DNA of 64,000 bases from Halomonas sp. (GTDB taxonomy: Bacteria; Pseudomonadota; Gammaproteobacteria; Pseudomonadales; Halomonadaceae), in assembly GCA_011050415.1 (NCBI GenBank), contig DRFS01000006.1, positions 245,539-309,538 on the forward strand, written 5' to 3'. Under the pieces are notes generated by a model. The model worked only from the letters and a program-made list of their open reading frames with translations. It did no database searches and was not told the origin of the DNA. Shown piece by piece: positions 38,431 to 59,714 of the stretch. The position numbers and the translations under genes were made by a program. Positions within the stretch are counted from its first letter, which is position 1. Every line of letters begins with the position of its first letter.

Positions 38431-38664
38431 TTGTCAGGTAGACCAGTATCGCCCATACCTTTACTAGTACCAATCTACCAAAATATGCATTTGATAAGCG
38501 TTGACATGAAACCACCATACATGACTTTTAATAACGCTTTAATTATGGGTGGTCTAACCCACCTGGTTCACCACTCATTCAAGCAGGTGAATTGATAACC
38601 CTCGCCATTTCACGTATGTTCGCCCGCCTACCCTCTATCCTGTTACATTACTGCGGCCTTACTT

Positions 38665-40680
38665 ATGGCGAAACGAACGGCAGGCTACACATCCTCAGGT
38701 ATTCGCAAGGCGGCTGCCCTCCCCGCGCTGCTGCCCGAATTTAATCGTTTCGAAGCCATTCGCCCACTCAAGCAAAAACCTGACGCGGTGATTGGTTGGG
38801 GGCTAAAACCCACCAGCATAAGAGCCAGGCAGTATGCTAAACGCAATCAGCTCCCTTATATCGCATTAGAAGATGGTTTTATACGTTCATTGGGCTTAGG
38901 TGTAAAAGGGTTTCAGTCGCATAGCTTAGTCGTCGATCAAACCGGCATTTACTACGATGCCTCGCGCTCTTCCGATTTAGAAAACTGGCTCAACACGGCC
39001 ACTTTCGATAGCGAAGAGCTGTTCCAGGCGGAGCGCTGCATGGCATTAATTGCCCGCTATCGCCTGTCTAAATATAACCACGCGCCAGACCAACCTCTTA
39101 AAGGTGCCCTCAAGGCGCGTGTATTAGTAGTGGATCAAACTGCGGGGGATGCCTCTATTCATTATGGCGGCGCTCAGGCAGCAAGCTTTCAACAGATGCT
39201 TGAGGCGGCATTAAAGGCGCACCCGGAAAGTGATGTGCTAGTCAAAGTTCACCCTGATGTCATCGCGGGTAAGAAGCAAGGGCACTTACTTAACGCAGCC
39301 GACCACCCGCGCTGTCATTTACTCGGGGAAGACATCAACCCCTGGGCACTGTTTGACCAGGTCGATCACGTGTATGTCGTCACCAGCCAGCTTGGTTTTG
39401 AAGCGCTGCTAGCGGGCAAGCAAGTTCACTGCTTTGGTATTCCATTTTACGCTGGTTGGGGGCTTACCCATGACCAACTACCCTGCGTGCGCCGCCGCAC
39501 TAAGCGCACACTGGTTGAAGTATTTGCCGCTGCCTATTTGCGCTACTGCCGCTACGCAAATCCCTATACCCAGCAATCCGCTACGTTGGAAGAGACCATC
39601 GCCCTGATCGCCGATCAAAGGCGCCAGCAGGAGCGTTATCGCGGCCCTTGGCTGGCGTGTGGCTTCTCCTCTTGGAAGCGGCGCTTTATCGGCAGCTTTT
39701 TAGGAAGCGCCGCCCGCGTAGAATATCAACCGATGCTGCCTAACACGCCTGCCAGCGAGCCTTCACCTGCTCGGCTGCTAGTCTGGTCGAGCCGTATTGA
39801 TGACGCGTTTAAAACGCAGCATGCCCAACACATGGCCAAGCTATGGCGCATGGAGGATGGGTTTATTCGCTCGGTAGGGCTAGGCGTTGATCTTACCCAG
39901 CCGCTATCGCTGGTGATTGATTCACAGGGCATCTATTACGACCCCAGCCAGCCCAGCGATTTGGAAACACTGCTCAATAGCAGCCAATTTAGCGATGACC
40001 TGCTGCTGCGTGCCCAGCACTTACGTGAACGGCTCGTCGCACTCAAACTCTCCAAATACAATGTGCAAGGCCAAGCTGACATAACGCTGCCCAAAGATCG
40101 CTATACGATTTTGGTGCCGGGCCAAGTAGAGAGTGATGCATCAATCGCCACCGGCTCGCCGCACATTAATACCAATAGTGGGCTATTAAGCGCCGTACGC
40201 CACGCCCACCCAGATGCCTTTATTATCTACAAAGCCCACCCCGATGTATTAAGCGGTGCCCGTGTGGGGGCACTCGATACCAATGCGAAACGCCTGTATG
40301 ATCTAGACGCCAGTGATATTGATATCGCCACGCTGCTAGAGCGCGTTGATGCCGTCCACACGATGAGCTCCTTAACCGGATTTGAAGCGCTTCTTCGTCA
40401 ACGCGAAGTCAGCACATACGGCTTACCTTTTTATGCCGGATGGGGCTTAACGCAAGACGCGCTTAGTTGCCCACGTCGTACGCGCTCGCTTTCGTTGGAT
40501 GCACTAGTTGCCGGTACGCTGATTCTCTACCCCGGCTATGTAGAACCAAAGACCCGTCAGCTATGTAATGCTGAAACGGTCATCAGCCTGTTGGAACGGG
40601 CAAGAACACAAAAATCTACCCTTACATGGAAACAGCACATTTACCGCTGTTATCGTAACTTGTTGATCGGAAGGCATTGA
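38665..40680 (+). CDS. kpsC: Capsule beta-Kdo transferase KpsC/LipA (WcbA-like)
   Basis: Two tandem domains, each with EDGF.RS.GLG, D..GIYYD, SKYN, K.HPD, TS..GFEALL, G.PFYAGWGLT. Confidence 0.93.
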   Translation: MAKRTAGYTSSGIRKAAALPALLPEFNRFEAIRPLKQKPDAVIGWGLKPTSIRARQYAKRNQLPYIALEDGFIRSLGLGVKGFQSHSLVVDQTGIYYDASRSSDLENWLNTATFDSEELFQAERCMALIARYRLSKYNHAPDQPLKGALKARVLVVDQTAGDASIHYGGAQAASFQQMLEAALKAHPESDVLVKVHPDVIAGKKQGHLLNAADHPRCHLLGEDINPWALFDQVDHVYVVTSQLGFEALLAGKQVHCFGIPFYAGWGLTHDQLPCVRRRTKRTLVEVFAAAYLRYCRYANPYTQQSATLEETIALIADQRRQQERYRGPWLACGFSSWKRRFIGSFLGSAARVEYQPMLPNTPASEPSPARLLVWSSRIDDAFKTQHAQHMAKLWRMEDGFIRSVGLGVDLTQPLSLVIDSQGIYYDPSQPSDLETLLNSSQFSDDLLLRAQHLRERLVALKLSKYNVQGQADITLPKDRYTILVPGQVESDASIATGSPHINTNSGLLSAVRHAHPDAFIIYKAHPDVLSGARVGALDTNAKRLYDLDASDIDIATLLERVDAVHTMSSLTGFEALLRQREVSTYGLPFYAGWGLTQDALSCPRRTRSLSLDALVAGTLILYPGYVEPKTRQLCNAETVISLLERARTQKSTLTWKQHIYRCYRNLLIGRH

Positions 40681-40681
40681 G

Positions 40682-41920
40682 TTGAACCCACCGAAGCGTG
40701 CATTCTTATTTTTACAGGGCGTTTGCTCACCGTTTTATCAGCGCTTAGCCAAGCGTTTGGTCAACGATGGCCACCGTGTGGTCAAGGTCAATTTCAATGC
40801 AGGTGATATTGCCTACTGGCAACGCACCCATGGCGAAAGTCATCTCTTCCGTGGCACCACGGCAGAGCTGCCCGGCTACATCAAAACCCTGTGGCAGCAG
40901 TATTCGATTACCGACCAAGTGGTGTTCGGTGACCGACGTCCCATTCATCGACCAGCGGTAGACAATGCCACTGCGGCTGGCGTACGTACCCATGTGTTTG
41001 AAGAGGGGTACTTTCGCCCCTTCTGGATTACCCTAGAGCGCGAAGGCGTCAATGGCCACTCGCTACTCCCACGCGACCCCAATTGGTTTTTCGAGACCGG
41101 CAAAGCGCTGCCCGAGCCGCCTGCTCCAGTGCGCTTTCGCTCCTCGTTTAAAATTCGCGCAATGCACGATGTTGGCTACCACTTAGCAGGGCTTGCCAAT
41201 CCGCTTGTGGCGCCACACTACCGCAATCATGCGCCGATTACCGCACCGGTGGAGTACGCGGGCTACCTTAAGCGTTTTAGCCAATTAAAATTCTGGAAAA
41301 AACGCGATGCCGAACGCATCAAAATGCTGATCGAAAGTGGTAAACCCTATTTCATGCTGCCGCTGCAGTTAAATAGCGATGCGCAAATTCGTGATCACTC
41401 CCCCTACGCCAATATGCAGGAAGTGATGGACGACGTAATGGCATCGTTTGCCCAGCACGCACCCAGCGATACCCAGCTATGTATTAAAAACCACCCGCTG
41501 GATATGGGCCTGGTCAATTACCCTAACATCATCAAACAGCTTGAAGAGCGTCACGGCCTGCAAGGGCGGATTGTTTATCTGGAGTCTGGGGATCTAAATA
41601 TCCTGCTTAAACATGCCAAGGGCAATGTGACGGTGAATAGTACGGTAGGCATCGTATCGCTTGAGAAGAACTGCCCGACTTTTGCGCTCAGCGATCCGAT
41701 TTACAACCTGGATGGGCTTACCTACCAGGGCAACTTAGCGGATTTTTGGCAACAGCCAGCGCCGCCAAACAGCAAGCTCTTTGGCTACTTTCAAAAGACC
41801 GTTATGCATGCGGTACAGGTTAACGGCGGCTACTACTGCCAGCCGGGTATCGATTTAGCCGTCGACAACGCCGCCCGCATATTAGAAGCCTGTCCGTCAC
41901 CGCTGGAGAAGCTGCTGTGA
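40682..41920 (+). CDS. kpsS: Capsule beta-Kdo transferase KpsS/LipB (WcbO-like)
   Basis: FLFLQG, FEEGYFRP.WITLER.GVNG, PLQLNSD.QIR.HS, IKNHPLD, VTVNSTVG, YNLDGLT. TTG start. Confidence 0.92.
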   Translation: MNPPKRAFLFLQGVCSPFYQRLAKRLVNDGHRVVKVNFNAGDIAYWQRTHGESHLFRGTTAELPGYIKTLWQQYSITDQVVFGDRRPIHRPAVDNATAAGVRTHVFEEGYFRPFWITLEREGVNGHSLLPRDPNWFFETGKALPEPPAPVRFRSSFKIRAMHDVGYHLAGLANPLVAPHYRNHAPITAPVEYAGYLKRFSQLKFWKKRDAERIKMLIESGKPYFMLPLQLNSDAQIRDHSPYANMQEVMDDVMASFAQHAPSDTQLCIKNHPLDMGLVNYPNIIKQLEERHGLQGRIVYLESGDLNILLKHAKGNVTVNSTVGIVSLEKNCPTFALSDPIYNLDGLTYQGNLADFWQQPAPPNSKLFGYFQKTVMHAVQVNGGYYCQPGIDLAVDNAARILEACPSPLEKLL

Positions 41921-42714
41921 GCCAACCTCAACCCTCTCGCTGCGTGCTGATTACCGGTGCTACCGGCGCGATTGGCGGCGCTCTGGCCCACGCCTATGCC
42001 GCGCCCGGCACGCTGCTTATTCTTCACGGGCGTCAACAGGATAAATTAGACGCGCTCGCGCAGAATTGCCGCCAGCAAGGCGCCCAGGTGACGCTCTCGA
42101 CAATCGACCTAACGGATGACCAAGCACTGCAAGCGTGGCTAGCTGATGTTTGTGCCCAGCAGGTACCGGATATTGTGATTGCCAATGCGGGGAAGAACAC
42201 CCACCCCCAAGCCCCCCAGGTTCTAGAGCCTTGGGTGGATGTGCAGGCATTACTAGATATAAACCTGAAAACGCCCATCGCCATGGCACAGCATTTAGTG
42301 CCCGCCATGCAAGCACGGGGCAGCGGCCAACTGGTATTGATAAGTTCGCTTGCCGCATGGCACGGCCTACCCACTACGCCCAGTTACAGTGCCAGCAAAG
42401 CGGGCATCAAAGCCTACGGCGAAGGATTACGCGGGCTGCTTGCCCCCCATGGCATTGGGGTGACGGTGGTGATGCCTGGCTACGTTACCTCGCCTATGTG
42501 CGAAGCGATGCCCGGCCCCAAGCCCTGGGAATGGCCGCCGGAGCGCGCCGCGAAAGTCATTAAGCGCGGCATTACCGCCAACCGTGCGCGAGTGAGCTTT
42601 CCCTTTCCGCTTAATTTCGGCACCTGGTGGCTAGCGGTGCTGCCTGCCGGGGTGTCGCAATGGCTAATCAAGCGACTGGGCTTTAATCACTCTGAAGATA
42701 CGCCCCATGATTAG
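41917..42714 (+). CDS. wcbP: Short-chain dehydrogenase/reductase, WcbP-like
   Basis: TGATGAIG, NAG, SSLAA, YSASK, PGYVTSPM. Confidence 0.85.
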   Translation: MSQPQPSRCVLITGATGAIGGALAHAYAAPGTLLILHGRQQDKLDALAQNCRQQGAQVTLSTIDLTDDQALQAWLADVCAQQVPDIVIANAGKNTHPQAPQVLEPWVDVQALLDINLKTPIAMAQHLVPAMQARGSGQLVLISSLAAWHGLPTTPSYSASKAGIKAYGEGLRGLLAPHGIGVTVVMPGYVTSPMCEAMPGPKPWEWPPERAAKVIKRGITANRARVSFPFPLNFGTWWLAVLPAGVSQWLIKRLGFNHSEDTPHD

Positions 42715-44317
42715 CGCTCTGATGTGGCCACTGCTCATAGGGCTACTGATCAGCGGTGTGTTTGAAGCCCTGCTCAACCCACGGCCACGCCCATTCTGGC
42801 AGCGTGGATGGGCAGCGAATGGTGTGCACCTTGGCACCTGGCTACTGCTATCAGGCGTGTTGGTGTTGCTACTTCAGCGGCCTTGGTTTGCGGCGATGGT
42901 GCTTCTGTCGTTACAACTGGTCGTGGTGCAGTCCAGCAACACCAAATCGCACACCCTAAACGAACCGTTTATCTGCCACGACTTTGAATACTTCTGGGAT
43001 GCCATACTGCATCCACGTTTATACGTGCCCTTTTTCGGCATTGGCTTAGCCATTGCCGCCAGCAGCGCTGCCACCGTGGCCATTGGCGCGTTCTTCTACT
43101 GGGAAACGTCATTAGTTACTAGCGAAGGCGCTAGCCTCTTTCTAATCAGTACGTTTGAGATCATTGCAATGGGGGTCGTGTTGCTCTCATTCAGCATTCC
43201 CAAGCTGCCAACCATTACGTTGCAACCTATTCAAGACCTACAGCGCTTAGGGCTGTTCGCCAGCTTATGGGCATACGGCATGGCGCTAGTGCGCTCACCA
43301 ATTCCAACCCCTGAGCAGTCGCCTTTTCATGAGTTAACTGAAATAGCCAAAGCCCACCAAGGTGACGAAACACTGCCTAACGTAGTGTTGGTGCAGAGTG
43401 AATCGTTTTTCGACCCCCGCCCCTGGTGTAAAGACATTGATACCAATTTACTACACCATTATGACAACACCCGAACCAATGCCATACTACAGGGTACGCT
43501 CAATGTGCCCGCCTGGGGGGCCAACACCGTACGTACTGAATGCGCCGTATTAACGGGCATTGCCCCGGCGCAGTGGGGAGCCCGCCAGTTCAACCCATAC
43601 CGCACCCTTTCACGCCACCCGCTGCCCAGTTTGGCAAGTGCTTTTAAAGCCGCGGGCTACCGGACAGTATGTGTGCACCCGTACCTGGCGAGCTTCTATT
43701 TTCGCCACAAAGTGATGCCCCAGCTTGGCTTTGACCAGTTTATAGATATCAATGCCTTCGAGAGCAGCGATAAAACCGGCCAATACATTAGCGATCTAGC
43801 AGTGGCACGAAAGATTGGACGACTGCTTGAAGATGACGATAATAGGCCGCTATTTATATTTGCGATCACCATGGAAAATCACGGGCCGTTGCATTTGGAA
43901 GCACCGAACCAAGCGCGTTTAGCCGATACCCTGCCTAATGCGACTTGGCCCTTGGCGGATCATTTACGTGATTTCGCGGTCTATTTGCACCACTTAGGTG
44001 AATCCGACAAGATGTTGGCGTGCGTTAAAGAAACGCTAGATTCAGCAAAAAGGCCGGGATTGCTAGGTTGGTATGGAGACCATGTGCCGATTTTACCAGC
44101 AGCGTATGCACACTTTACGCCGCCAGATGGACGCACCCCTTACATGTTATGGTCAACGCAGACAGAGGCAGCCATGAGCGAGTATTCGGCAAAAGCCAAT
44201 GCCGCTCATGAATTAGCCGCAAACGAACTTGGTGTCCAGTTGTTTAAACAGGTGTTTGGACACGCATTAAATAGCGATATGATCAAGGCAGAACCAGAAC
44301 CTCAGGAGCAAGAATGA
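42707..44317 (+). CDS. wcbQ: LtaS/sulfatase-fold membrane phosphotransferase, WcbQ-like
   Basis: N-terminal TMs; VQSESFFD, GANTVRTE (Thr nucleophile position), HPY...F.R, TMENHGP, YGDH. Confidence 0.85.
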   Translation: MISALMWPLLIGLLISGVFEALLNPRPRPFWQRGWAANGVHLGTWLLLSGVLVLLLQRPWFAAMVLLSLQLVVVQSSNTKSHTLNEPFICHDFEYFWDAILHPRLYVPFFGIGLAIAASSAATVAIGAFFYWETSLVTSEGASLFLISTFEIIAMGVVLLSFSIPKLPTITLQPIQDLQRLGLFASLWAYGMALVRSPIPTPEQSPFHELTEIAKAHQGDETLPNVVLVQSESFFDPRPWCKDIDTNLLHHYDNTRTNAILQGTLNVPAWGANTVRTECAVLTGIAPAQWGARQFNPYRTLSRHPLPSLASAFKAAGYRTVCVHPYLASFYFRHKVMPQLGFDQFIDINAFESSDKTGQYISDLAVARKIGRLLEDDDNRPLFIFAITMENHGPLHLEAPNQARLADTLPNATWPLADHLRDFAVYLHHLGESDKMLACVKETLDSAKRPGLLGWYGDHVPILPAAYAHFTPPDGRTPYMLWSTQTEAAMSEYSAKANAAHELAANELGVQLFKQVFGHALNSDMIKAEPEPQEQE

Positions 44318-47300
44318 CTAAACGCGTTGCCATTATCGGCGCCGCCCATCGTTTCCCCGGCACCACCCCTGAAACGTTCTGGCAGGACCTGCAAGCCGAA
44401 AAAGATTTAGTTACTGAAGTGGCCGCTGACCGCTGGAGCCACGAAGCTTATCAGCACCCTGATAAACGCCACCCAGGTACCAGCGTGACCTTTGCCGCCG
44501 GAAGCTTGGGCGATATCAGCGGTTTTGACGCTGATTTTTTTGGCATTTCGCCCCGCGAAGCGGCCAATATGGACCCCCAGCAGCGCATGCTCCTAGAGCT
44601 TGCCTGGGAGGCGATGGAAAATGCCAACATTCTGCCCAGCACCCTACGTGGTAGCCAGTGTGGGGTGTTTTTAGGCGTTGCCAGCCTGGACTACTCTTAC
44701 CGCATGGCAGATGACATGGCGGCCATTGACGCCTCCACCGCCACGGGCAATACCTCCAGCATCGCCTCGAATCGATTGTCTTACGTGTTCGACCTACACG
44801 GCCCCAGCATGTCGCTGGATACCGCCTGTTCGTCCTCTATGGTGGCGTTTCACCAAGCCTGCCAATCGATTCGCAGCGGTGAAACTACCATGGCGCTGGC
44901 GGGTGGCATTAGCCTGCACCTGCACCCCTATGGCTTTATTATCTTCTCCAAAGCCAGCATGCTCTCACCTACTGGCCGCTGCCAAGTGTTCGATGAAGGC
45001 GGCAACGGCTACGTACGCTCGGAAGGTGCTGGCCTGTTCCTGCTAAAAGATTATGATCTTGCCGTTGCTGACGGCGACAATATTATTGCTGTGGTGGCAG
45101 GCTCTGCGGTGAATACCGATGGTCATAAATCGGGGCTAACGGTACCCAACCCCAGCGCCCAGATTGACCTGATGAAGCGCGCCTATCAGCAGGCGGGCAT
45201 TGAGCCGGACGAGATCGACTACCTGGAAGCACACGGCACCGGCACCGCTGTAGGCGACCCAATTGAATCCCGCGCCATCGGTGAAGCCCTCGGCCAGCAT
45301 CGTAAAACACCGTTACTGATTGGCTCGGTAAAGAGCAACTTAGGCCACCTGGAAACCGCCTCAGGGGTGGCTGGGCTTGCCAAGGCGCTTTACAGCATCC
45401 AACACCGCGAAGTACCTGCCACTATTGGTATTCGCAAGCTCAATTCGCGCATCAAATTTGATGAGTGGAATATATCCGTGGTCACCAAAGCCCAGCCGCT
45501 GAAGAAAGAGGGACGCCTGATTATCGGCATCAACTCATTCGGTTTTGGCGGGGCCAACGCCCACGTTATTTTAGAAAGCCCGCCCGAGCGCGCCAAGCCC
45601 GAGCCACTTACACCCGCTACGCCGCTGCCCATTCGCCTCACTGCCCGCAGCGAAGCCGCACTTACCCAAAGTGCCGAAACGCTGGCGGCCTATCTGGGCC
45701 AAAACGCCACCGCGTCCTTTTACGATATCGCCCATACCCTGTTCACTCACCGTGACCACCACGCCCATGGCGCGCTGCTGTTTGCCCAAACAGCTGAAGA
45801 AGCTGCCTCGCTTCTTAGCGATTTTGCGGCGGGGGAAACGAAAAGCGTCACTACTCTGGAGCGCTTGCCCAAGGCCACAGGCCCGGTGTTTGTTTACGAT
45901 GGCAACGGCTGCCAGTGGGAATCCATGGGCCACGACCTGCTCAACGATTCGCCAGTATTCGCTGATGCCATCGACCGGGTAGATGCCATCTTCCAGCAGC
46001 ACGGCGACTTCTCGCTACGTGCTGAACTGGAAGGTCGCAATGCTGATCTGAGCACCGAAAACCGCTTTGCACTGACCGAGATTGCTCAGCCTGCCCTATT
46101 TGCGCTGCAGGTAGCATTAACGGAGTGGCTGCGTGCGCAAGGCATTACGCCCACCGCCGTGTTTGGTCATAGCGTGGGCGAAGTCGCGGCGGCCTGGGCC
46201 AGCGGCGCGTTAAGCCTGGAAGACGCGGTCAAGGTGATTTACTACCGCAGCGACTACCAAGGCAAAACCCGCGGCCAAGGCGAAATGACTGCCGTGGCGA
46301 CAAGTGCCGATGAGATCGCCGAGTGGCTCGAAAAACCCGAATTCGATCAGGTCTGCCTGGCGGGCATTAATAGCCCCAAAGGGATTACCTTGGCGGGAGA
46401 CAGCCAACAGCTGGGGGCGTTAGAAGCGGCACTGAGCAATCTGGATATCTTTGCCAAACGTCTGCCGCTGGATTACGCCTTCCACAGCCCGGCGATGGAC
46501 AGTATTGAAGCGGGCGTTATCAATGCTCTGGCCGATATTACCCCCCGCGCCACGCAGGTGCCCTACTACTCCACCGTGACCGGCACCCTGATTGAGGGTG
46601 TTGAGTTAGGCGCTACCTATTGGTGGAAAAACATTCGCGAGCCGGTGCTGTTTGACGCCGCCGCCAGCGCACTGATTGAGCAAGGCAACAATGTATTTAT
46701 TGAGATTGGTGCTCATCCCATTCTGCGCCGCTATCTGAATGAAACGCTTCGCCAGCTAGATAAAGCGGGCTTGGTATTTGGCACGATTGAGCGACACAAA
46801 CCTGGCATGGAAGGGTTACAGCGCTGCCTTAGTCAGTTATTGCTGAGCGGCCTTACCCTGGATTACCGCCAGTTCTTCCCGATTGAAGGCCTGCGTGTAC
46901 CGCTACCGCGCTATGCCTGGCAGCGTAGCCACCACTGGGTACATGGTACGAATGACAGCCAAGGTCTGCTTTCGCGCTACTACCAGCACCCACTGCTGGG
47001 CTACCCGTTGGCTCAGCACCAACATACCTGGGAAAGCCAGCTGGATACTCAGCGCCAGCCATGGCTTGCTGACCACGTGGTCGGTGAAGGCGCCGTATTC
47101 CCCGGCGCCGGTTTTGTAGAACTGACCCTGGCGGCGGCACTGCAGTTAAAAGATAGCCCGCTGCTGGACATTGAAGAGCTGGAGATTCGTGCGCCGCTGC
47201 TACTCGACGGCCCCCATGGCCGTGCCATGCGGCTTACCTTCGCGCCGGAAGATGGCCGCCTGGAGATTCACTCCCGCGAGCCTGCCACCGGCAACGAATG

Positions 47301-50300
47301 GCAGCTAAATGCCGTGGCCCGCACCATGCGTGAGAGCCGTGGCTTCCTGCTTAAACGTCAGGCGCCCGCTATTCCAAATCGCGCGCCGGACTACACGCTG
47401 GAAGATCACCTGCACATGGCCGAGCGGATTGGCCTTCACTACGGACCAGCCTTCCAGGCGATTTCCCAGGGCTGGATTGAAGGCGATGCGGTGATTGGCG
47501 AAATCGCCCTGTCGGATGAGGTAAAGGCACAGCTAGACACCTTGCACGTGCACCCAGGCATTCTCGACAGCGCCTTCCAGATGTTTATTCCGCTGCTTGC
47601 ACAACACAGTGGGTTTGCGTCACAGCTCGCCTTTGTGCCGGTTCGTGTAGGGCGTATTCAAGTGAATACTCAAGCGGGCGAACCAGTTATCGCGCGCGCC
47701 GTGATGGGCAAGCGTGCGCCGCACTCCTTCACCGCTGATTTCGAGCTGTATGACGCCGCCGGCAATGCCGTTGCAGTGTTGAGCCAAACGCGCTTTAAGG
47801 CGATTCGTCTTAACCGCGCGCACCATCAGCACTTCAGTTACCTAGATATTGAACTGACACCAGCGCCGCTGACGCCAGCCCCCCTGGTGTTACCCGCAGA
47901 AGCGCTCGCTCGCTTGGCCGATATCGCCAGCGTTTACGCCGAATACACTGGCCAGCGCTATGGCAATGAAGTCGCCCCGCTGCTCGACAGTCTCAGCGAA
48001 GCTTTTGCAAATGCCGCCACCGATGAGGCTCAGCACTCGCCAGACGTTATCTGGCAACTGCTAGTACAGGACTACCCTGACTACTTTGCGCCCATTCATA
48101 TGGTGGGGCGTTTAGGACTACATCAACAGGCGCTGCGTAGCGGCACCAGCGATCTTGAAGCGCTGGGCATTAGCCACGAAAAAGTGGCACGCTTAAACCG
48201 AGTACTGGTAGGCGAAAGCGGCTGGCAGGTGTTGGCAGGCGTGTTAGGAGAGATCATCGATGCGCTCATAGCAGAGCTCTCCCCTGGTCAACGCTTACAG
48301 CTTTTAGAAGCGGGCCCCAGCGCGCCTGCATTGGGTGAACGTCTGCTGGAGCGCACCGTTCACACGCTGTACCACGACCTTACCCATTACCGCGTGATCA
48401 CCACCCTCGACAGCGCACGCCATCAAGCCGAACAGCTGCAAGAGCGCTTTCCGCTGATCGATGTGGAGCATCTAGACCAAAACGATTTCGCATCGCTAAC
48501 CGCTCCCTCCAGCGTGGCAAAAGCCCAGGTGGCGTTTGTCAGCGTGGATATCACCCGGCCAAGCGCCACGCGCAAGCTTATTGAAGCGCTACCTGCACAG
48601 CTAGCGGCCGGAGCCCAGCTAATGCTGGTTGGCATCTCTCCCAGTCGCTGGATAGATGATCTACTGGCCACGCCAGGCATCGACCAAACCGCGCTGGAAC
48701 AAGACACCCTTATCGGCTGGCTCAACGATCAAGGCTTTGTGGTATCCACGCCCATGGCACTGGAGGAGAGTGAGAGTGGCGCTTACCTGCTGCATGCCTA
48801 TTATCCCTTAGATACGCCATCAGTCGAGACAGCGACCCAGCGTCGCCACCTGATCATCGCAGATCATAACAGTGAAACAGTGGCGGCCAATCTGATCGAG
48901 ACGCTGCAATCACAAGGCGCTTCTGCGCTGCTCAGCGTTAGCCAGAGCGCGCCTGCAGAGTTGTTGACCCACGCTTTGTCTCAGCCAACGCTAGCCAATC
49001 ACGCTGAGCACACGCTCAATGTCATTGACCTGCGCGGCCTGGGTGCTAACAGTACTGAAGCGCAAACCGCCCGCTGTGAGTACGCTCTTCAGTGGACACT
49101 AGCCCTAGAACAGCAGTCGCTTGACGCTTCCCTATGGCTGGTCACTAATGGCCTGAGTGCGCTCTGGCAGTCCACCGTTGCAAGCGCTGACGACGCGCCC
49201 GGCGACGCGGCCCTGTGGGGCTTTGGCCGATCGCTGGCGAACGAAGCCATTGGTCATAGCGTTTATCTACTGGATATTCCGGCCATGATCAGTGAAGCCG
49301 CGCTTCACGCTTGGGCCACACTGCTTGCCCAACCGGATAGCGAGAACGAAGCGCTGATCGACAATCAAGGCCACCGCTTTGCCACGCGATTACGTACGCT
49401 ATCGGCACCCCATCCAGGCATATCACAACACAGCGCGCAGCCACGTCAGGCCATGACGCTTGGCTTTGCCATGCCCGGCCAGCTGCGCCAGTTAATCTGG
49501 CGGCCGCGCCCACTGCCGGAAGCCAATGCCGACGAGGTGGAAATTCGTGTTAAAGCCACCGGGCTTAACTTCCGCGATGTGATGTACACCCTTGGCTTGC
49601 TTTCCGATGAAGCGATTGAGAACGGCTTCGCCGGGCCAACGCTAGGGCTTGAGTTTGCAGGCGTGGTCGAAGCGGTAGGCAGTAATGTGACCCACCTAAC
49701 GCCAGGCCAAGCCGTGGTTGGCTTCGGCCCGGCAAGCTTCAGCGATAACGTCATTGCCAGCCAGCATGCCGTTGCGCCGCTGCCGGAAGGCATTAGCTTT
49801 GCCGCCGCGGCCACCATTCCCACCACGTTCTTTACGGTTTACTACGCGCTTAAGCACCTCGCGCGGCTAGAGCCGGGTGAGAAAGTGCTTATTCACGGCG
49901 CTGCTGGCGGCGTGGGCATTGCCGCACTGCAAATCGCTCAATGGCTGGGCGCGGAAATTTACGCAACGGTGGGCTCTGAAGAGAAACGCGACTTCCTGCG
50001 CCTGATGGGCATCGAGCGGCTGTACGACTCCCGCTCGCTCACCTTCGCTGAAGAGATTCTCGAAGACACCAACGGCGAAGGTGTCGATGTGGTGCTTAAC
50101 TCGCTGGCCGGGGAAGCGATTAACCAGAACCTGCGAGCCCTGCGCCCATTTGGCCGCTTCCTGGAACTGGGAAAACGCGACTTCTATGAAAATACCCATA
50201 TTGGCCTGCGCCCGTTCCGCAACAATTTAAGCTACTTCGGTATCGATTCCGATCAGCTAATGAAAGTGCAGCCCGCCCTCACCCAGCGCCTGTTTGGCGA

Positions 50301-51684
50301 AATGATGGCGTTGTTTAACGATGGCACGTTGAGCCCACTGCCGTTTACCTCGTTCAGCCACACGCAAGTGATCGACGCCTTCCGCTATATGCAGCAGGCG
50401 CGTCAGATCGGCAAGGTGGTGGTTACTTATGAGCAGCCCATCGCACCGCCGCAAAACGACGTTTTGGGGACTGCCGAAATGCAGCTATCCCCGGAGGCCA
50501 GCTATCTGGTCACCGGTGGTCTCGGTGGTTTCGGCTTAAGAACCGCCCAATGGCTTGTGGAAAAAGGCGCGCGGCAACTGATTCTGCTCAGTCGTAGCGG
50601 CCCCGCCAGTGAAGAAGCGCAAGCAGCAGTCGCGGCCTTTGAACAGCAAGGCGTTAAGGTATTGGCAGCGGCGTGTGATATTACCGACCGCGCTGCGCTA
50701 GCCAGTCTTCTCGAGCGCGCCAAAGGTGAACTCGCCCCACTGCGCGGTATTGTGCACGCGGCCACGGTGATCGATGACGGCTTGATCCGTAATTTAGACG
50801 CCGATCGGATTCAAAAAGTATTGGCGCCCAAGATCGATGGTGCCCGTTATTTGGATGCCCTTACCCGCGATGCCGAGCTGGATTTCTTTGTGCTCTACTC
50901 GTCGGCGACCACGCTGTTTGGTAACCCTGGGCAGGCTAACTATGTAGCCGCTAACCACTGGCTCGAAGCCTTTGCCGCCAACCGCCGTGCAGCTGGCTTA
51001 CCGGCAACCTGCGTGCGTTGGGGGGCCATTGAAGATGTCGGTTTCCTGGCCCGCAATACCCGCACCCGGGATGCGCTGCAAGAGCGCCTGGGCGGTTCAG
51101 CGCTGCGCTCAGAGGATGCACTCAAGGTGCTCGAGCAGATGCTGATAACGCCGGGGCCAAGCCTGGGCGTGCTGGAACTGGAGTGGGGCGCACTAGCTCG
51201 CTTCCTGCCCACCAGTGATGCGCCGCGTTTTAACGAAATTGCCCGTGCCAGTGACGATGACAGCAGTTCAGATGCCGATGACGATATCAGCGCACTGCTG
51301 GCCGACCTCTCCCCCGAGGAGTTACACAGCACAGTGACGGATTTGCTACGTGCTGAACTGGCCAGCATCCTGTTGATTGATGAAGAGAAGCTCGATATTC
51401 ACCGCTCGGTTTACGACATGGGTTTCGACTCGCTGATGGGCGTCGAGCTAATGACGGCGATTGAGAACCGACTGGGGATACAGGTGTCAGTGATGGTGCT
51501 CAGCGAGGCATCGACGCTAGACAAACTGGCTGGCGTACTGATCAAGAAAATGCATCAGCATGACGACGATGTTGAAGACACACCGCAAGATGCGATAGCC
51601 TCGCTGGCCGCACAACACGGTGCAGAGGAGTTCACGTCTGAACCGTCCGCTGCTTCATCATCACCCGCGACAGAGACACCATGA
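44314..51684 (+). CDS. wcbR: Single-module highly reducing type I polyketide synthase, WcbR-like (KS-AT-DH-pseudoMT-ER-KR-ACP)
   Basis: KS DTACSSS / HGTGT / KSNLGH; AT GHSVG, YAFH; DH HVVGEGAVFP, DSAFQ; ER IHGAAGGVG; KR TGGLGGFG, YVAAN; ACP GFDSLM; no thioesterase. Confidence 0.95.
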   Translation: MTKRVAIIGAAHRFPGTTPETFWQDLQAEKDLVTEVAADRWSHEAYQHPDKRHPGTSVTFAAGSLGDISGFDADFFGISPREAANMDPQQRMLLELAWEAMENANILPSTLRGSQCGVFLGVASLDYSYRMADDMAAIDASTATGNTSSIASNRLSYVFDLHGPSMSLDTACSSSMVAFHQACQSIRSGETTMALAGGISLHLHPYGFIIFSKASMLSPTGRCQVFDEGGNGYVRSEGAGLFLLKDYDLAVADGDNIIAVVAGSAVNTDGHKSGLTVPNPSAQIDLMKRAYQQAGIEPDEIDYLEAHGTGTAVGDPIESRAIGEALGQHRKTPLLIGSVKSNLGHLETASGVAGLAKALYSIQHREVPATIGIRKLNSRIKFDEWNISVVTKAQPLKKEGRLIIGINSFGFGGANAHVILESPPERAKPEPLTPATPLPIRLTARSEAALTQSAETLAAYLGQNATASFYDIAHTLFTHRDHHAHGALLFAQTAEEAASLLSDFAAGETKSVTTLERLPKATGPVFVYDGNGCQWESMGHDLLNDSPVFADAIDRVDAIFQQHGDFSLRAELEGRNADLSTENRFALTEIAQPALFALQVALTEWLRAQGITPTAVFGHSVGEVAAAWASGALSLEDAVKVIYYRSDYQGKTRGQGEMTAVATSADEIAEWLEKPEFDQVCLAGINSPKGITLAGDSQQLGALEAALSNLDIFAKRLPLDYAFHSPAMDSIEAGVINALADITPRATQVPYYSTVTGTLIEGVELGATYWWKNIREPVLFDAAASALIEQGNNVFIEIGAHPILRRYLNETLRQLDKAGLVFGTIERHKPGMEGLQRCLSQLLLSGLTLDYRQFFPIEGLRVPLPRYAWQRSHHWVHGTNDSQGLLSRYYQHPLLGYPLAQHQHTWESQLDTQRQPWLADHVVGEGAVFPGAGFVELTLAAALQLKDSPLLDIEELEIRAPLLLDGPHGRAMRLTFAPEDGRLEIHSREPATGNEWQLNAVARTMRESRGFLLKRQAPAIPNRAPDYTLEDHLHMAERIGLHYGPAFQAISQGWIEGDAVIGEIALSDEVKAQLDTLHVHPGILDSAFQMFIPLLAQHSGFASQLAFVPVRVGRIQVNTQAGEPVIARAVMGKRAPHSFTADFELYDAAGNAVAVLSQTRFKAIRLNRAHHQHFSYLDIELTPAPLTPAPLVLPAEALARLADIASVYAEYTGQRYGNEVAPLLDSLSEAFANAATDEAQHSPDVIWQLLVQDYPDYFAPIHMVGRLGLHQQALRSGTSDLEALGISHEKVARLNRVLVGESGWQVLAGVLGEIIDALIAELSPGQRLQLLEAGPSAPALGERLLERTVHTLYHDLTHYRVITTLDSARHQAEQLQERFPLIDVEHLDQNDFASLTAPSSVAKAQVAFVSVDITRPSATRKLIEALPAQLAAGAQLMLVGISPSRWIDDLLATPGIDQTALEQDTLIGWLNDQGFVVSTPMALEESESGAYLLHAYYPLDTPSVETATQRRHLIIADHNSETVAANLIETLQSQGASALLSVSQSAPAELLTHALSQPTLANHAEHTLNVIDLRGLGANSTEAQTARCEYALQWTLALEQQSLDASLWLVTNGLSALWQSTVASADDAPGDAALWGFGRSLANEAIGHSVYLLDIPAMISEAALHAWATLLAQPDSENEALIDNQGHRFATRLRTLSAPHPGISQHSAQPRQAMTLGFAMPGQLRQLIWRPRPLPEANADEVEIRVKATGLNFRDVMYTLGLLSDEAIENGFAGPTLGLEFAGVVEAVGSNVTHLTPGQAVVGFGPASFSDNVIASQHAVAPLPEGISFAAAATIPTTFFTVYYALKHLARLEPGEKVLIHGAAGGVGIAALQIAQWLGAEIYATVGSEEKRDFLRLMGIERLYDSRSLTFAEEILEDTNGEGVDVVLNSLAGEAINQNLRALRPFGRFLELGKRDFYENTHIGLRPFRNNLSYFGIDSDQLMKVQPALTQRLFGEMMALFNDGTLSPLPFTSFSHTQVIDAFRYMQQARQIGKVVVTYEQPIAPPQNDVLGTAEMQLSPEASYLVTGGLGGFGLRTAQWLVEKGARQLILLSRSGPASEEAQAAVAAFEQQGVKVLAAACDITDRAALASLLERAKGELAPLRGIVHAATVIDDGLIRNLDADRIQKVLAPKIDGARYLDALTRDAELDFFVLYSSATTLFGNPGQANYVAANHWLEAFAANRRAAGLPATCVRWGAIEDVGFLARNTRTRDALQERLGGSALRSEDALKVLEQMLITPGPSLGVLELEWGALARFLPTSDAPRFNEIARASDDDSSSDADDDISALLADLSPEELHSTVTDLLRAELASILLIDEEKLDIHRSVYDMGFDSLMGVELMTAIENRLGIQVSVMVLSEASTLDKLAGVLIKKMHQHDDDVEDTPQDAIASLAAQHGAEEFTSEPSAASSSPATETP

Positions 51685-53006
51685 CTGCAAAGCGTTCTGA
51701 ACTGAAACAGCAGCTTCTGGATAAAGCACGCAAGCGCACTGCCCCGCGTGCTGCCAGCGTCACTGCGTCGTCATCTGACAGACAAGGTGCAGACCAGCGC
51801 ACAGTACCCGAACGCTTCACGCGTTTTGATGCCCAGCCCGGCTATCAGCAAATTGCCATGATGCGCCAGGCTGCGGATCAGTTAGGTTTGGTAGACCCGT
51901 TCTTTAAGGTGCATGAGGGCAGTGCTGGGGCAACCAGTGTCATTAATGGCCAGACCTGCATTAATTTTGCCAGCTATAACTATCTTGGCTTTTCAGGCGA
52001 CCCGCGTATTAACCAGGCCGCCTGCGATGCGGTGGCCCGTTATGGCACATCTGTTTCCGCTAGCCGTGTGGTCTCCGGTGAACGGCCCATTCATCAGGAG
52101 TTGGAACAGGCGCTGGCTAACGCGTATGACGTTGAAGACGCCGTGGTGTTTGTTAGCGGCCACGCTACCAACGTTTCCACCCTGGGTTACCTGCTTGGCC
52201 CTAAAGATTTAGTGCTCCACGATGAGTATATTCATAACAGCTCATTAGTCGGCGCGCAGCTTTCTGGCGCCAAGCGCATGTCGTTTAGTCACAACGACCC
52301 GGCAGCACTAGAAACCCTGCTTGCCCGTCATCGGCATCAGTTTGAGCGCGTGCTGGTGGTGATCGAAGGGCTTTACAGTATGGATGGCGACATCCCTGAA
52401 CTGCCGCGTTTTATCGAACTGAAGCAGCGTTTTCAGACTTGGCTAATGGTCGATGAAGCACACTCGTTTGGCGTAATGGGGGAAACCGGCCTGGGGCTGC
52501 GCGAGTATTTTGATATCGACCCGCGTGATGTGGATATCTGGATGGGCACCATGAGCAAAGCCATGGCGGGATGCGGCGGCTATATCGCAGGCAGCAAACC
52601 GCTAGTCGAAACGCTACGCTATCTGGCGCCAGGTTTCCTGTATAGCGTTGGAATGCCTGCCCAAGTGGCTGCGCCATCGCTTGCCGCCTTACAGCTCATG
52701 CAGCAAGAGCCCGAGCGAGTACAGCAGCTGCATGCTATTTCGCGCTACTTCCTGGAACAGGCCACCGCGCGCGGGCTAGATACCGGTAGCAGCATAGGTG
52801 CCGCCGTCGTGCCCATCATTATCGGCAGCTCTGCGGCAGCCGCCCGTCTCTCCCATGGGCTGCTGGAACAGAACATCAATGTTCAGCCTATTCTTTACCC
52901 TGCGGTACCGGAAAAGAGTGCGCGGCTGCGCTTCTTCCTTTCTTGTGACCATACCCAAACACAGATTGACCAAACGTTACATGCATTAGCCACGTTGCTA
53001 CCGTAA
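51681..53006 (+). CDS. wcbT: PLP-dependent alpha-oxoamine synthase (BioF/SPT class), WcbT-like
   Basis: NFASYNYLG, SASRVVSGE, HNS, FSHND, EGLYSMDGD, DEAHS, GTMSKA; ATGA overlap with the PKS. Confidence 0.88.
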   Translation: MTAKRSELKQQLLDKARKRTAPRAASVTASSSDRQGADQRTVPERFTRFDAQPGYQQIAMMRQAADQLGLVDPFFKVHEGSAGATSVINGQTCINFASYNYLGFSGDPRINQAACDAVARYGTSVSASRVVSGERPIHQELEQALANAYDVEDAVVFVSGHATNVSTLGYLLGPKDLVLHDEYIHNSSLVGAQLSGAKRMSFSHNDPAALETLLARHRHQFERVLVVIEGLYSMDGDIPELPRFIELKQRFQTWLMVDEAHSFGVMGETGLGLREYFDIDPRDVDIWMGTMSKAMAGCGGYIAGSKPLVETLRYLAPGFLYSVGMPAQVAAPSLAALQLMQQEPERVQQLHAISRYFLEQATARGLDTGSSIGAAVVPIIIGSSAAAARLSHGLLEQNINVQPILYPAVPEKSARLRFFLSCDHTQTQIDQTLHALATLLP

Positions 53007-53059
53007 CCTATCTGTCAGAGAAAACACGGCAAATACTCGCTAAGCCCAAGGATGAATGC

Positions 53060-53578
53060 ATGGACTGTTTCAGCGACTTAGAAGGCGCCATGCCTTGTTG
53101 GTACGTTATTCAATGCAAGGGCGGGGAATCATTCCGTGCCGCTGAACACCTCACTAATCAAGGATACGAGGTGTTTCATCCTGTCCTGAATATCAAACGG
53201 AAACGACAAGGCAAATTGGTTACCGTTAACGAGCCGCTGTTTCCCTACTATCTTTTCATTCGCCTGGATCAAGTGGTCAGTAATTGGCGGCCTATTCGCT
53301 CAACGCGCGGTGTGCTAAGACTGCTCACCTTCGGTAATAGGCCGGTTGCCACGCCAGACGCTTTAATTGACACACTGCGCGCCCAACCGCACCAGCAAGT
53401 CGATATCCACACCTACTTCAGCGCTGGTGAGAAAGTCACCATCACTGACGGCCCCTTCAAAGACCTCGAAGCCATCTTCACCCGCTGCAAAGGCGAAGAG
53501 CGCGCCATTGTATTGCTCAATGTGCTCAACCGGCCGCAGCATCTGGATCTACCCGTGGAAAGCCTGCAGAAAGTGTGA
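53060..53578 (+). CDS. rfaH: Transcription antiterminator RfaH
   Basis: WYVIQCK..E..RA..HL.NQG, EPLFPYYLFI, IRSTRGV..LL.FG, KOW GEKVTITDGPF. Confidence 0.9.
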   Translation: MDCFSDLEGAMPCWYVIQCKGGESFRAAEHLTNQGYEVFHPVLNIKRKRQGKLVTVNEPLFPYYLFIRLDQVVSNWRPIRSTRGVLRLLTFGNRPVATPDALIDTLRAQPHQQVDIHTYFSAGEKVTITDGPFKDLEAIFTRCKGEERAIVLLNVLNRPQHLDLPVESLQKV

Positions 53579-53686
53579 GTGGTGAGTGGTGAGCAGGTTA
53601 TTTGCTGCTTCATACCTGTATGGAAAAGCGTGGTATGTGATAATTAGCAACATTACCATCACCGAATATTCTGCATGGAGGCACGG

Positions 53687-54196
53687 GTGGCAACCTATCG
53701 ACGCGCGCATGTTCCTGGCGGCAGCTACTTTTTCACGGTCGTGACCTACGCCCGACAACCCCTCTTGGCAGACCGCCTCAATATCGAAGCGCTAGGCCGC
53801 GCCTTCCGTAAAGTGCGAGAAGAGCGCCCCTTCGTTATGGACGCATTTGTACTGCTCCCCGACCACCTCCACTGCCTATGGACCCTCCCGGAAGGCGATG
53901 CCGACTACTCCTCCCGCTGGCGGGACATCAAAAAATACGCCTCACAAGAATTCCTCTTCCCACCCGGCACCCAAAGCGCCTGGCAACGCGGGTTCTGGGA
54001 ACACGTCATTCGTGATGAGCACGATTGGCAGCGCCATATGGATTACATCCACTACAACCCCGTCAAACACGGCTGGACCAAAGCACCCCGCGACTGGGAA
54101 TGGTCAAGCTTCCACCAATGCGTGCAAAAAGGCTGGTACGAACCCGACTGGGGCGCCCAACAAACGCCCGCTGTCGCCGAAATGGATTGGGAATAA
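53687..54196 (+). mobile_element. rayT: REP-associated tyrosine transposase (RAYT, HUH/Y1 family)
   Basis: GGSYFFTVVT, VLLPDHLHCLW (HUH), WQRGFWEHVIRD, YIHYNPVKHG, WSSFH. GTG start after GGAG; REP array immediately downstream. Confidence 0.93.
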
Positions 54197-54234
54197 ATTA
54201 AATATCCCAACCCCCGCACCGCTAGGCGCTGTTT

Positions 54235-55173
54235 CCGCGGGTGCGCCGCAGGCTTACCACGCGCTACGAGACCCACCAAAATCAGCTGCGGCCACGTAGC
54301 GCGTGGTAACGAATCTCGCGAGGTACGAGCGAATGAGGCACCCGCGGGAGGCGGCGGAACGACGCCCAAGGGCATCGAACCAACTCCGCCAACACAGGCC
54401 AACCCCGGCACCGCTTCGCGCTGCTCCCGCAGGTGCGCCTTAGGCTTACCACGCGCTACGAAACCCACGGCCACGTAGCGCGTGGTAACGAATCTCGCGA
54501 GGAACGAGCGAATGAGGCACCCGCGGGAGGCGGCGGAACGACGCCCAAGGGCATCGAACCAACTCCGCCTCCACAGGCCAACCCCGGCACCGCTTCGCGA
54601 TGCTCCCGCGGGTGCGCCGTAGGCTTACCACGCGCTACGAAAACTGCGGCCACGTAGCGCGTGGTAACGAGGTTGTGAGGAACGAACAGCCGAGGCACCC
54701 GCTGGAGGCGGCGGAACGACGCCCAAGGGCACCGCACCAACAACGCCTGCACAGGCCAACCCCGGCACCGCTTCGCGCTGCTTCCGCGGGTGCGCCGTAG
54801 GCTTACCACGCGCTACGAAACCCACGGCCACGTAGCGCGTGGTAACGAGGTTGTGAGGAACGAACATCCGAAGCACCCGCGGGAGGCGGCGGAACGACGC
54901 CCAAGGGCACCGCACCAACAACGCCTGCACAGGCCAACCCCGGCACCGCTTCGCGATGCTCCCGCGGGTGCGCCGTAGGCTTACCACGCGCTACGAAAGC
55001 TGCGGCCACGTAGCGCGTGGTAACGAATCTCGCGAGGTACGAGCGAATGAGGCACCCGCGGGAGGCGGCGGAACGACGCCCAAGGGCACCGAACCAACAC
55101 CGCCTGCACAGGCCAACCCCGGCACCGCTTCGCGATGCTCCCGCGGGTGCGCCGTAGGCTTACCACGCGCTAC
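54235..55173. repeat. BIME/REPIN-like array of GTAG-family REPs: 5 complete 178-179 bp units plus one leading half unit (11 REPs)
   Basis: Units start GTAGCGCGTGGTAA at 54296, 54475, 54654, 54832, 55010 and end TTACCACGCGCTAC at 54459, 54638, 54816, 54994, 55173; a lone reverse REP ends at 54267. Confidence 0.93.
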
Positions 55174-55213
55174 GAAACCAACAAACCGTACCGCTAACGA
55201 GGCATGTGTTTGC

Positions 55214-56077: not shown

Positions 56078-56100
56078 TTGCTTCCTATGCTATTTCGTTA

Positions 56101-59574: not shown

Positions 59575-59714
59575 TTACTTCTCCCTTGCTCAATACCGCC
59601 GATAATCATTCTTTTAATCTGACGAATGAAACGATACTTTCAAATTTTTTCGAGTCATTAGCTTTAAAAAAATATAGCTAAAATGATCCGCATTGCTGCC
59701 ACACTGATTCATTA

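Follow-up and report, generated by a model that had tools for sequence, protein, structure and literature searches.

In the group 2 capsule systems of Escherichia coli and Neisseria, KpsS and KpsC work on (lyso)phosphatidylglycerol, and these systems are without any module of polyketide synthase (PKS), alpha-oxoamine synthase (AOS), short-chain reductase (SDR) and LtaS-like transferase. Such a module has been known since the 1990s from rkp-1 of Sinorhizobium and wcb of Burkholderia, clusters that are taken as orthologous, with wcbR equated to rkpA (PMC3908369). According to a review that cites Kiss 1997, what rkp-1 encodes serves in making and modifying a 'specific lipid carrier' (PMC4881576); the region is required for the secretion of poly-Kdo (Kdo, 3-deoxy-D-manno-octulosonate), and its mutants are described in reviews as being without surface K antigen (PMC4881576). 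Which lipid the rkpA/wcbR systems make has been a question since the early 1990s; the genes sit in the capsule loci of key pathogens and symbionts and are virulence determinants in the pathogens. Within Halomonadaceae, kpsSC and wcbPQRT of Cobetia marina KMM 1449 were assigned in Mar Drugs 2025 to 'capsular polysaccharide lipid biosynthesis', with a function that is little known (PMC11766843). Here we analyse a locus of this kind in a stretch of 64,000 nucleotides (nt) from Halomonas sp. (contig DRFS01000006.1), hereafter the window, in which the rkp-1/wcb capsule lipid module is joined co-linearly to kpsC and kpsS in a six-gene operon at 38665-53006. We propose that the operon makes, in five steps, an amino-alcohol lipid on which the Kdo linker of the capsule is built, and give this mechanism as a whole a probability of about 0.5.

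In the proposed mechanism, 1) WcbR, acting iteratively in the manner of a fatty acid synthase (FAS), would turn malonyl units into a long saturated acyl chain on its own acyl carrier protein (ACP); 2) WcbT would dock on the acidic tail of WcbR and release the chain by a pyridoxal phosphate (PLP)-dependent decarboxylative Claisen condensation with a small amino acid, giving a long-chain 2-amino-3-ketone; 3) WcbP would reduce the ketone to an amino-alcohol; 4) WcbQ, facing the cytoplasm, would attach a phospho-alcohol to one of the lipid's hydroxyls, with phosphatidylglycerol most probably donating glycerol phosphate, and so leave a phosphatidylglycerol-like head group; and 5) KpsS would add the first beta-Kdo to this head group and KpsC would extend the linker, on which the serotype-specific polymer would be built and then exported. 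The order of enzymes, from acyl-ACP through AOS release and SDR reduction to the phospho-headgroup, is chemically coherent, and a sphingoid-like anchor pathway plausibly fits their logic. The original prediction, made from the letters of this locus, had put it forward as a candidate pathway. As a novelty it does not stand, since a lipid carrier for rkp-1 had been proposed by 1997 and the Cobetia set is already in print: the scheme restates a hypothesis about thirty years old for a known and widespread gene set. What is new are three leads, namely the GacH-like character of WcbQ, the inverted charge bias of its loops, and the complementary termini of the synthase and the AOS.

A check of the open reading frames (ORFs) returned six on the + strand, spanning 38665-53006 and with exactly the coordinates given here; a promoter candidate precedes them.

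38592-38620, + strand: weak sigma-70-like promoter candidate in the 234-nt kpsC leader (9/12 consensus positions)
38665-40680, + strand: kpsC, dual-module beta-Kdo glycosyltransferase, 671 amino acids (aa) (two Capsule_synth matches)
40682-41920, + strand: kpsS, single-module beta-Kdo transferase priming the linker, 412 aa, TTG start (Capsule_synth)
41917-42714, + strand: wcbP/rkpH, classical NAD(P)H SDR, 265 aa (adh_short)
42707-44317, + strand: wcbQ/rkpI, membrane LtaS/GacH-like phospho-alcohol transferase, 536 aa (Sulfatase domain)
44314-51684, + strand: wcbR/rkpA, single-module fully reducing type I PKS/FAS-like synthase, 2456 aa (Pfam domains)
51681-53006, + strand: wcbT/rkpG, PLP-dependent AOS, 441 aa (Aminotran_1_2)

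The kpsC and kpsS genes are separated by 1 nt, kpsS overlaps the SDR gene by 4 nt (GTGA) and the SDR gene overlaps the LtaS-like gene by 8 nt (ATG..TGA), while the LtaS-like/PKS and PKS/AOS junctions are ATGA overlaps of 4 nt each. Because every junction is either a 1-nt gap or a start/stop overlap of 4-8 nt, the signature of translational coupling, we read the six genes as one translationally coupled operon; coordinates and junctions thus agree with the tight coupling first noticed by eye. Our scan of 38300-55300 for promoters and terminators gave counts no higher than in shuffled sequence and is for that reason silent on the operon boundaries beyond the overlaps. The sequencing runs that match the window are DNA or metagenome runs only, marine-sediment metagenomes among them, and the window sequence is also found on a 702-kb Joint Genome Institute (JGI) metagenome contig. 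From these finds and the identities of WcbT given below we take the source to be an uncultured member of the Halomonadaceae.

Protein families were assigned with Pfam and NCBIfam models and their curated cut-offs, and these uphold the identities that had been proposed for all six genes. With the same gene content, and with the AOS gene following the synthase gene, the locus is the Halomonadaceae form of the rkp-1/wcb capsule lipid module. Its genes are, as judged from sequence comparison, orthologous to rkpA/G/H/I/J of S. meliloti and wcbR/T/P/Q of Burkholderia, with kpsS and kpsC added; the equivalence to Burkholderia wcbPQRT that had been suggested was recovered by tblastn against Caballeronia wcb and S. 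meliloti rkp-1. When plasmids were searched with WcbT (tblastn), the S. meliloti match lay on pSymB in the classical rkp-1 region, which contains rkpU, rkpA, rkpG, rkpH, rkpI (an unannotated LtaS-like ORF), rkpJ and kpsF. The five kinds of protein seen in our locus (type I synthase, AOS, SDR, LtaS-like protein and KpsS homologue) are all encoded in this region: RkpA counts 2502 aa, RkpG is 47% identical to WcbT and its start overlaps the rkpA stop by 4 nt, and RkpJ is the KpsS homologue (37% identity). It differs from our locus in that overall identities are just 23-47%, the order is PKS-AOS-SDR-LtaS-KpsS, kpsC lies outside the block, and the N-terminus of RkpI, in the ORF as read, is unlike that of WcbQ.

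The Burkholderia wcb capsule I cluster comprises wcbP-Q-R-S-T together with wcbA/wcbO; its arrangement, seen through plasmid p2 of Caballeronia insecticola, has SDR, LtaS-like, PKS and AOS genes on one strand in the order wcbP-Q-R-S-T, followed by kpsD/M/T/E (tblastn). Burkholderiaceae and Ralstonia carry an extra gene between PKS and AOS, wcbS for an LpxC-like deacetylase, which our locus does not have. Cobetia marina KMM 1449 has the same gene set as the window and is likewise without wcbS; it differs in having kpsETMD and 3'-phosphoadenosine-5'-phosphosulfate (PAPS) genes beside kpsSC (PMC11766843), whereas a GGDEF gene lies upstream here. In C. crustatorum (L025), a different Cobetia species, about 1.1 kb separates PKS and AOS. 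Burkholderia mutants bring the wcb genes close to the capsule: transposon mutants of wcbQ, wcbS and wcbT are depleted 24-30 fold in lung, like those of other capsule genes (PMC4631991), and wcbR knockouts lower capsular polysaccharide I (CPS-I; PMC3735121). Because these mutants resemble capsule mutants, a capsule role of the wcb genes fits.

To place the locus among its relatives we ran a pattern scan with one genome per species, which gave at least 595 confirmed AOS relatives; the best 80 of these species-level loci, whose AOS is 54-94% identical to WcbT, were analysed. Represented among them are Halomonadaceae, Marinobacterium, Pseudomonas, Bordetella, Achromobacter, Ralstonia, Nitrosomonas, Accumulibacter, Thiothrix, Acidithiobacillus, a metagenome-assembled genome (MAG) of Nitrospira and others, and WcbT is 92-94% identical to its counterparts in Halomonas sp. 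HAL1, Vreelandella sedimenti, V. titanicae and V. neptunia. In 76 of the 80 loci, which span Gamma- and Betaproteobacteria, the AOS gene has the end of a PKS gene of its own strand within 400 nt upstream, and the pair is also present in the alphaproteobacterial rkp-1 locus of the plasmid set, an arrangement that we judge to be far beyond chance. A kps gene or a wcbP homologue stands within 10 kb in 41 of the 50 loci with full flanks; among these 50, wcbP is found in at least 27 and wcbQ in at least 28, which are lower bounds because the 7.4-kb synthase fills most of the 10-kb upstream flank. We had also considered that a natural-product cluster had come to lie beside kps genes by chance, and rejected this, as the linkage is conserved across classes.

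Pseudomonas and Achromobacter also have the order kpsC-kpsS-wcbP-wcbQ, in most cases as a block that converges on PKS-AOS, and the two blocks are co-linear, as in the window, in Halomonadaceae, Marinobacterium and one MAG. A wcbS gene was found in one of the 80 loci (Ralstonia), besides the Caballeronia plasmid. It had been noted from the start that wcbS is missing here, which is correct; that its absence would define a minimal core is not supported, since 79 of the 80 loci are without it, and this absence is therefore the normal state rather than a peculiarity of the window. The plasmid-borne module of Pseudomonas sp. TMW 2.1634 (L004, 17372-27925) has extra genes, for a GNAT acetyltransferase, a phytanoyl-CoA dioxygenase-family protein, a second KpsC-like protein and a phosphotransferase, which hint at lineage-specific tailoring of lipid or linker.

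The linkage bears on a first rival explanation, in which PKS, AOS and SDR together yield either a lipid that stays free in the membrane or a small amino-ketone or amino-alcohol signal like those of CqsA/LqsA, a product that is never covalently attached to the polymer and acts on the capsule indirectly, via export, membrane organisation or regulation. AOS enzymes do make autoinducers too, and WcbT matches the model of the alpha-hydroxyketone autoinducer synthases, although its 157 bits are far under the cut-off of 428. PKS-AOS pairs also exist outside capsule loci, e.g., on p1 of Burkholderia sp. FERM BP-3421 (L007), where a 45%-identical pair is accompanied by a zinc-dependent alcohol dehydrogenase and a Lol-like ABC system and by no capsule genes, and loss of wcbR merely lowers the capsule (PMC7858667). 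Yet from an iterative synthase that is fully reducing one expects a long chain rather than a short signal, the genes are tightly linked to kpsS and kpsC over a broad phylogenetic range, and mutants of the rkp-1 region are, according to the reviews cited above, without surface K antigen. We regard this explanation as quite improbable.

Returning to the lipid-anchor mechanism, its first enzyme is a single module with the domain order KS-AT-DH-ER-KR-ACP (ketosynthase, acyltransferase, dehydratase, enoylreductase, ketoreductase and ACP), laid out as follows.

44320-45432, + strand: WcbR KS (Pfam)
45886-46851, + strand: WcbR AT (Pfam)
46987-47805, + strand: WcbR DH (Pfam)
47806-49527, + strand: WcbR DH-ER linker of 574 aa (no Pfam match)
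49528-50427, + strand: WcbR ER (Pfam)
50497-51033, + strand: WcbR KR (Pfam)
51343-51537, + strand: WcbR ACP (Pfam)
51538-51681, + strand: WcbR acidic tail, aa 2409-2456 (charge composition)

The motifs of all six domains are intact: the KS has its active-site residues C169, H307 and H345; the AT has GHSVG and YAFH, the latter with the Phe of malonyl-type domains; the DH has H921 and D1085xxxQ, the ER HGAAGGVG, the KR an IDD motif and Y2210, and the ACP S2372. Neither a thioesterase (TE) nor a reductase domain was found past the ACP with Pfam and NCBIfam, the 48-aa tail being all that follows; WcbR is, as had been claimed, a fully reducing PKS without a thioesterase. Its domain set is plain from these matches; with it WcbR would work iteratively and give a long chain. 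The 574-aa DH-ER linker has no Pfam match, even at E<=1, and may, after the animal FAS, consist of a degenerate methyltransferase and the structural half of the KR.

The chain of such a synthase has to leave the ACP, and WcbT is the candidate for this step by the chemistry of the AOS family and by its conserved adjacency to the synthase. The fungal pathways for fumonisin (Fum1/Fum8/Fum13) and sphingofungin (SphB/SphA/SphF) work in this way, with a TE-less highly reducing synthase, unloading by an AOS and 3-ketoreduction by an SDR. SphA (PDB 9pep) is recognisably related to WcbT (E 4e-26), although WcbT is closer to bacterial serine palmitoyltransferases (SPT) and to 7poa/8s1y; the fungal systems are eukaryotic toxin or antifungal pathways without glycan attachment. 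WcbT matches Aminotran_1_2 with 156 bits, its AOS core covers aa 76-438, and in the homologue alignment the catalytic residues H185, D258, H261 and K293 are invariant, as are the arginines R415 and R417 of a C-terminal ARLRFF motif. Two of its features are placed as follows.

51681-51830, + strand: WcbT basic N-terminal extension, aa 1 to about 50 (charge composition)
52557-52559, + strand: codon of the WcbT PLP lysine K293

WcbT scores under the cut-off of every curated AOS model in NCBIfam (BioF, KBL, SPT, ALAS and autoinducer synthases). The best family is bioF, at 343.8 bits with a cut-off of 426, which agrees with the BioF/serine-palmitoyltransferase class first assigned to it even if the score is sub-cut-off; the KBL model gives 291 bits (cut-off 460) and the SPT equivalogs 288.6 (cut-off 640), 278 (500) and 201 (670). 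In the PDB search the bifunctional AONS/KBL-type enzyme 7poa/8s1y ties with the Sphingobacterium SPT 3a2b at about 225 bits. We had tried to name the amino acid that WcbT uses and dropped this, the curated scores being similar and sub-cut-off and the two best solved structures being tied.

The solved AOS enzymes do not have the N-terminal extension of WcbT, which is about 50-75 residues long. Across 83 loci its first 48 residues are basic, with a median of 9 Lys/Arg (K/R) and a conserved helix of the LKxxLIQQALERKLR type; in the same 83 loci the WcbR tail after the ACP is acidic, with a median of 8 Asp/Glu (D/E) versus 3 K/R and a conserved QHG motif. Because these termini are oppositely charged, they suggest a candidate docking pair for direct hand-over of the chain from WcbR to WcbT.

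The unloading step also bears on a second rival explanation, in which the PKS is the source of an unusual fatty acid, a very-long-chain (hydroxy) one, that goes into a lyso-phospholipid anchor built on glycerol, and WcbT, WcbP and WcbQ have other roles, e.g., in head-group tailoring. The anchor of Fraysse 2005 reportedly consists of phosphoglycerol and a hydroxy-C28 acid. The poly-Kdo capsule of S. meliloti is lipid-anchored, and the title of that paper, as cited in PMC5539429, names a 'phospholipid anchor'; moreover, WcbR is called a 'fatty acid synthase' in the Burkholderia literature (PMC3735121, PMC7858667). Against this, such an anchor leaves unexplained how the TE-less synthase is unloaded and why an AOS follows the PKS in 76 of the 80 loci, often translationally coupled and with termini of complementary charge. 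We hold it to be improbable.

For the third step of the amino-alcohol pathway, WcbP matches adh_short at 128 bits, has the motifs TGATGAIG, NAG and Y157xxxK161, and finds its closest solved relatives among the 3-oxoacyl reductases of the FabG type; within the SDRs it fell into no particular named family. At the other end of the pathway, KpsC, a dual beta-Kdo transferase of family GT107, has two Capsule_synth modules (315 bits, Pfam); its N half matches the solved KpsC domain 6mgb/6mgc (E 1e-77) and its C half the solved domain 6mgd (E 4e-65), domains that it has in common, together with the HP motifs, with the E. coli and Neisseria group 2 systems. KpsS has one Capsule_synth module (277 bits, Pfam). 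The HP motif is kept in all three Kdo-transferase modules, at aa 196 and aa 525 of KpsC, one per module, and at aa 271 of KpsS. With 272.6 bits against the NCBIfam KpsS equivalog NF050054, KpsS is under the 600-bit cut-off, yet it has the Capsule_synth match and the HP motif, and for these reasons we take it to be a divergent member of the KpsS family.

The step between these enzymes falls to WcbQ, in which five transmembrane (TM) helices (aa 2-166) precede the catalytic domain (aa 224-520), with the Pfam Sulfatase match at aa 224-495. Its closest solved sequence match is the phosphoglycerol transferase GacH (E 1e-10), followed by LtaP and LtaS, and no phosphoethanolamine transferase was matched among the solved structures at E<0.01. 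The AlphaFold (AF2) model (predicted local distance difference test, pLDDT, 84.6) shows interfacial helices besides the five TM helices and the catalytic domain; its top-ranking matches in Foldseek are GacH, LtaP and LtaS, and the full length aligns with the cryo-EM structure of MCR-1, whose architecture of five TM helices and a catalytic domain is the same. In 35 homologues drawn from several classes, residues E232, T274, H392 and D458-H459 do not vary, and T274 aligns with the nucleophile position of GacH. WcbQ thus has what is expected of an LtaS/GacH-type enzyme, i.e., a sulfatase fold, a Thr nucleophile, a Glu/Asp-His metal site and an N-terminal TM bundle; fold, nucleophile and metal ligands are shared with GacH/LtaS/LtaP and with EptA/MCR-1, although identity to them is just 14-20%. 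Against the curated LtaS equivalog it scores 18.6 bits, where the cut-off is 970, and we therefore place it in the LtaS/GacH superfamily as something other than an LtaS orthologue.

The predicted architecture of WcbQ follows the usual plan, in which loops 1 and 3 share a side with the catalytic domain, and it is the charge of the loops that sets the family apart. In the WcbQ family loops 1 and 3 together carry a mean of 6.8 K/R and the N-terminus, loop 2 and loop 4 about 1.5, as opposed to 2 and 10, respectively, in E. coli EptA; loop 1 of the family has 3.2 K/R and almost no acidic residues, and loop 3 of S. meliloti RkpI carries 6 K/R. Because this bias is inverted relative to EptA, the positive-inside rule, which orients the E. 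coli controls EptA and OpgB correctly, predicts that the catalytic domain of WcbQ faces the cytoplasm, opposite to EptA and contrary to every characterised member of the family. The cytoplasmic side is also that of KpsS, KpsC, the synthase and the AOS, and the prediction would remove the main topological objection to WcbQ preparing the acceptor of KpsS. Together with the affinity to phosphoglycerol transferases, it lends support to the proposed scheme.

A third rival explanation turns on this point. In it KpsS works on ordinary phosphatidylglycerol, as in E. coli, and a periplasmic WcbQ decorates or re-anchors the exported polymer, either by modifying the Kdo linker or the polymer with glycerol phosphate, in the way that GacH decorates the group A carbohydrate, or by shifting the polymer-Kdo-glycerol-phosphate head group from diacylglycerol to the PKS/AOS lipid. 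The nearest solved relative, GacH, indeed decorates a polysaccharide outside the cell, the full-length fold matches the periplasm-facing MCR-1, wcbQ is dispensable in some loci, and the Cobetia paper takes WcbQ as a glycerol-phosphate transferase on polysaccharide (PMC11766843). The charge bias of loops 1 and 3, inverted relative to EptA, argues the other way, the same rule placing the E. coli controls EptA and OpgB correctly, as does the position of wcbQ, almost always beside the SDR gene and kpsS and not beside export genes. On balance we find this explanation unlikely.

Several points weigh against the five-step mechanism that we prefer. First, steps 2 to 5 are ones that we infer, and WcbT is an AOS subfamily of its own, all curated models scoring under their cut-offs, so that its amino-acid substrate cannot be named. 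Second, to our knowledge every characterised LtaS/EptA/OpgB/GacH enzyme has an extracytoplasmic catalytic domain, and the cytoplasmic orientation of WcbQ is the prediction of a single rule, the positive-inside rule. Third, wcbQ was not found in some loci (Microbulbifer L006, L034, L039, L083, L087), one of which, from Microbulbifer, spans 33 kb; because wcbQ is missing there, the conserved core appears to be closer to PKS and AOS, with the SDR usually nearby. Fourth, two loci, of a Methylococcaceae MAG (L039) and of the Nitrospira MAG (L084), are without a synthase within 10 kb upstream; their WcbT homologues are 57-58% identical and adjoin kpsS/SDR or kpsE/M/T/D/C/S, and their acyl donor must be encoded elsewhere in the genome. 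Fifth, the ABC exporter kpsMTED was looked for without success in the window and the 20 kb that follow it (L002, L090). Sixth, the B. pseudomallei CPS-I deletion that includes wcbR reportedly reduces and does not abolish the capsule (PMC7858667), which would mean either that the lipid is no strict requirement, or that phosphatidylglycerol can substitute for it, or that its role is indirect. Our full-text literature search returned no paper that resolves the lipid chemistry, several key primary papers being beyond its reach.

Extending the mechanism to all wcbR/wcbT-bearing Proteobacteria (Halomonadaceae, Burkholderia, Bordetella, Achromobacter, Pseudomonas, Nitrosomonas, Sinorhizobium and others), with a polyketide-derived amino-alcohol anchor and a phosphatidylglycerol-like head group added by WcbQ as the first LtaS-family transferase of the cytoplasmic face, is a tentative step that we view with some doubt. 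If the anchor is a non-glycerolipid, the textbook view that all ABC-transporter-dependent capsules start on phosphatidylglycerol needs revision, and if the inverted topology of WcbQ is true, the known range of LtaS-family enzymes is extended. The compact wcbS-free six-gene form occurs in non-pathogenic, often culturable halophiles and is convenient for reconstitution.

The operon appears to stand at one end of a large polysaccharide or capsule locus of the ABC-transporter type (group 2/3-like). Its immediate neighbours in the window are the following.

36370-38430, - strand: dCache-PAS-GGDEF diguanylate cyclase gene, divergent from kpsC with a 234-nt spacer
53060-53578, + strand: rfaH, NusG-family operon-specific antiterminator (TIGR01955, 169.1 bits, above the 144.5 cut-off)
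53675-54196: gene of a transposase associated with repetitive extragenic palindromes (REP), i.e., a REP-associated tyrosine transposase (RAYT)
54207-55182: six tandem REP-like units of about 178 nt
55214-63839, - strand: sugar-precursor block galU, pgi, pgm, glmM, glmS, cysQ

The diguanylate cyclase beside kpsC could link cyclic di-GMP signalling to the capsule; a second GGDEF protein (HDOD-GGDEF) is encoded near the start of the window (1522-3081, + strand). The rfaH gene starts 53 nt past wcbT and is associated with the operon while lying outside the lipid module; it is downstream of wcbT only in a Vreelandella/Halomonas subset, in 8 of the 50 full-flank loci. For the RfaH ops element GGCGGTAGnnTG the window has six matches with at most one mismatch, which is the level expected by chance, and none of them is in the kpsC leader. 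Each of the tandem units further downstream contains a perfect 15-nt hairpin, TTACCACGCGCTACG / CGTAGCGCGTGGTAA, and 53675-55182 as a whole looks like a RAYT with its own REP array; this segment has an unusual AT skew of 0.17.

Past the end of the window (L002, L090) there are genes for a 1016-aa GT2+GT4 enzyme, a 758-aa GT2 enzyme, an AlgX-like protein, an IS110 transposase, a second glmM and glmS, two heparinase II/III-like proteins and a methyltransferase. Towards the start of the window, genes for an ABC ATPase, an 837-aa FtsX-type permease and a CrtC-lipocalin protein stand in a row at 3110-7487 (+ strand), and the non-capsule PKS-AOS cluster of Burkholderia sp. FERM BP-3421 (L007) likewise has an ABC/FtsX/LolA-like set. 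They are followed at 7509-20462 by a histidine-utilisation cluster (hutG-, hutI- and hutU-like genes and two genes for aromatic amino acid lyases) and a BCCT transporter, a cluster that is unrelated to the capsule operon.

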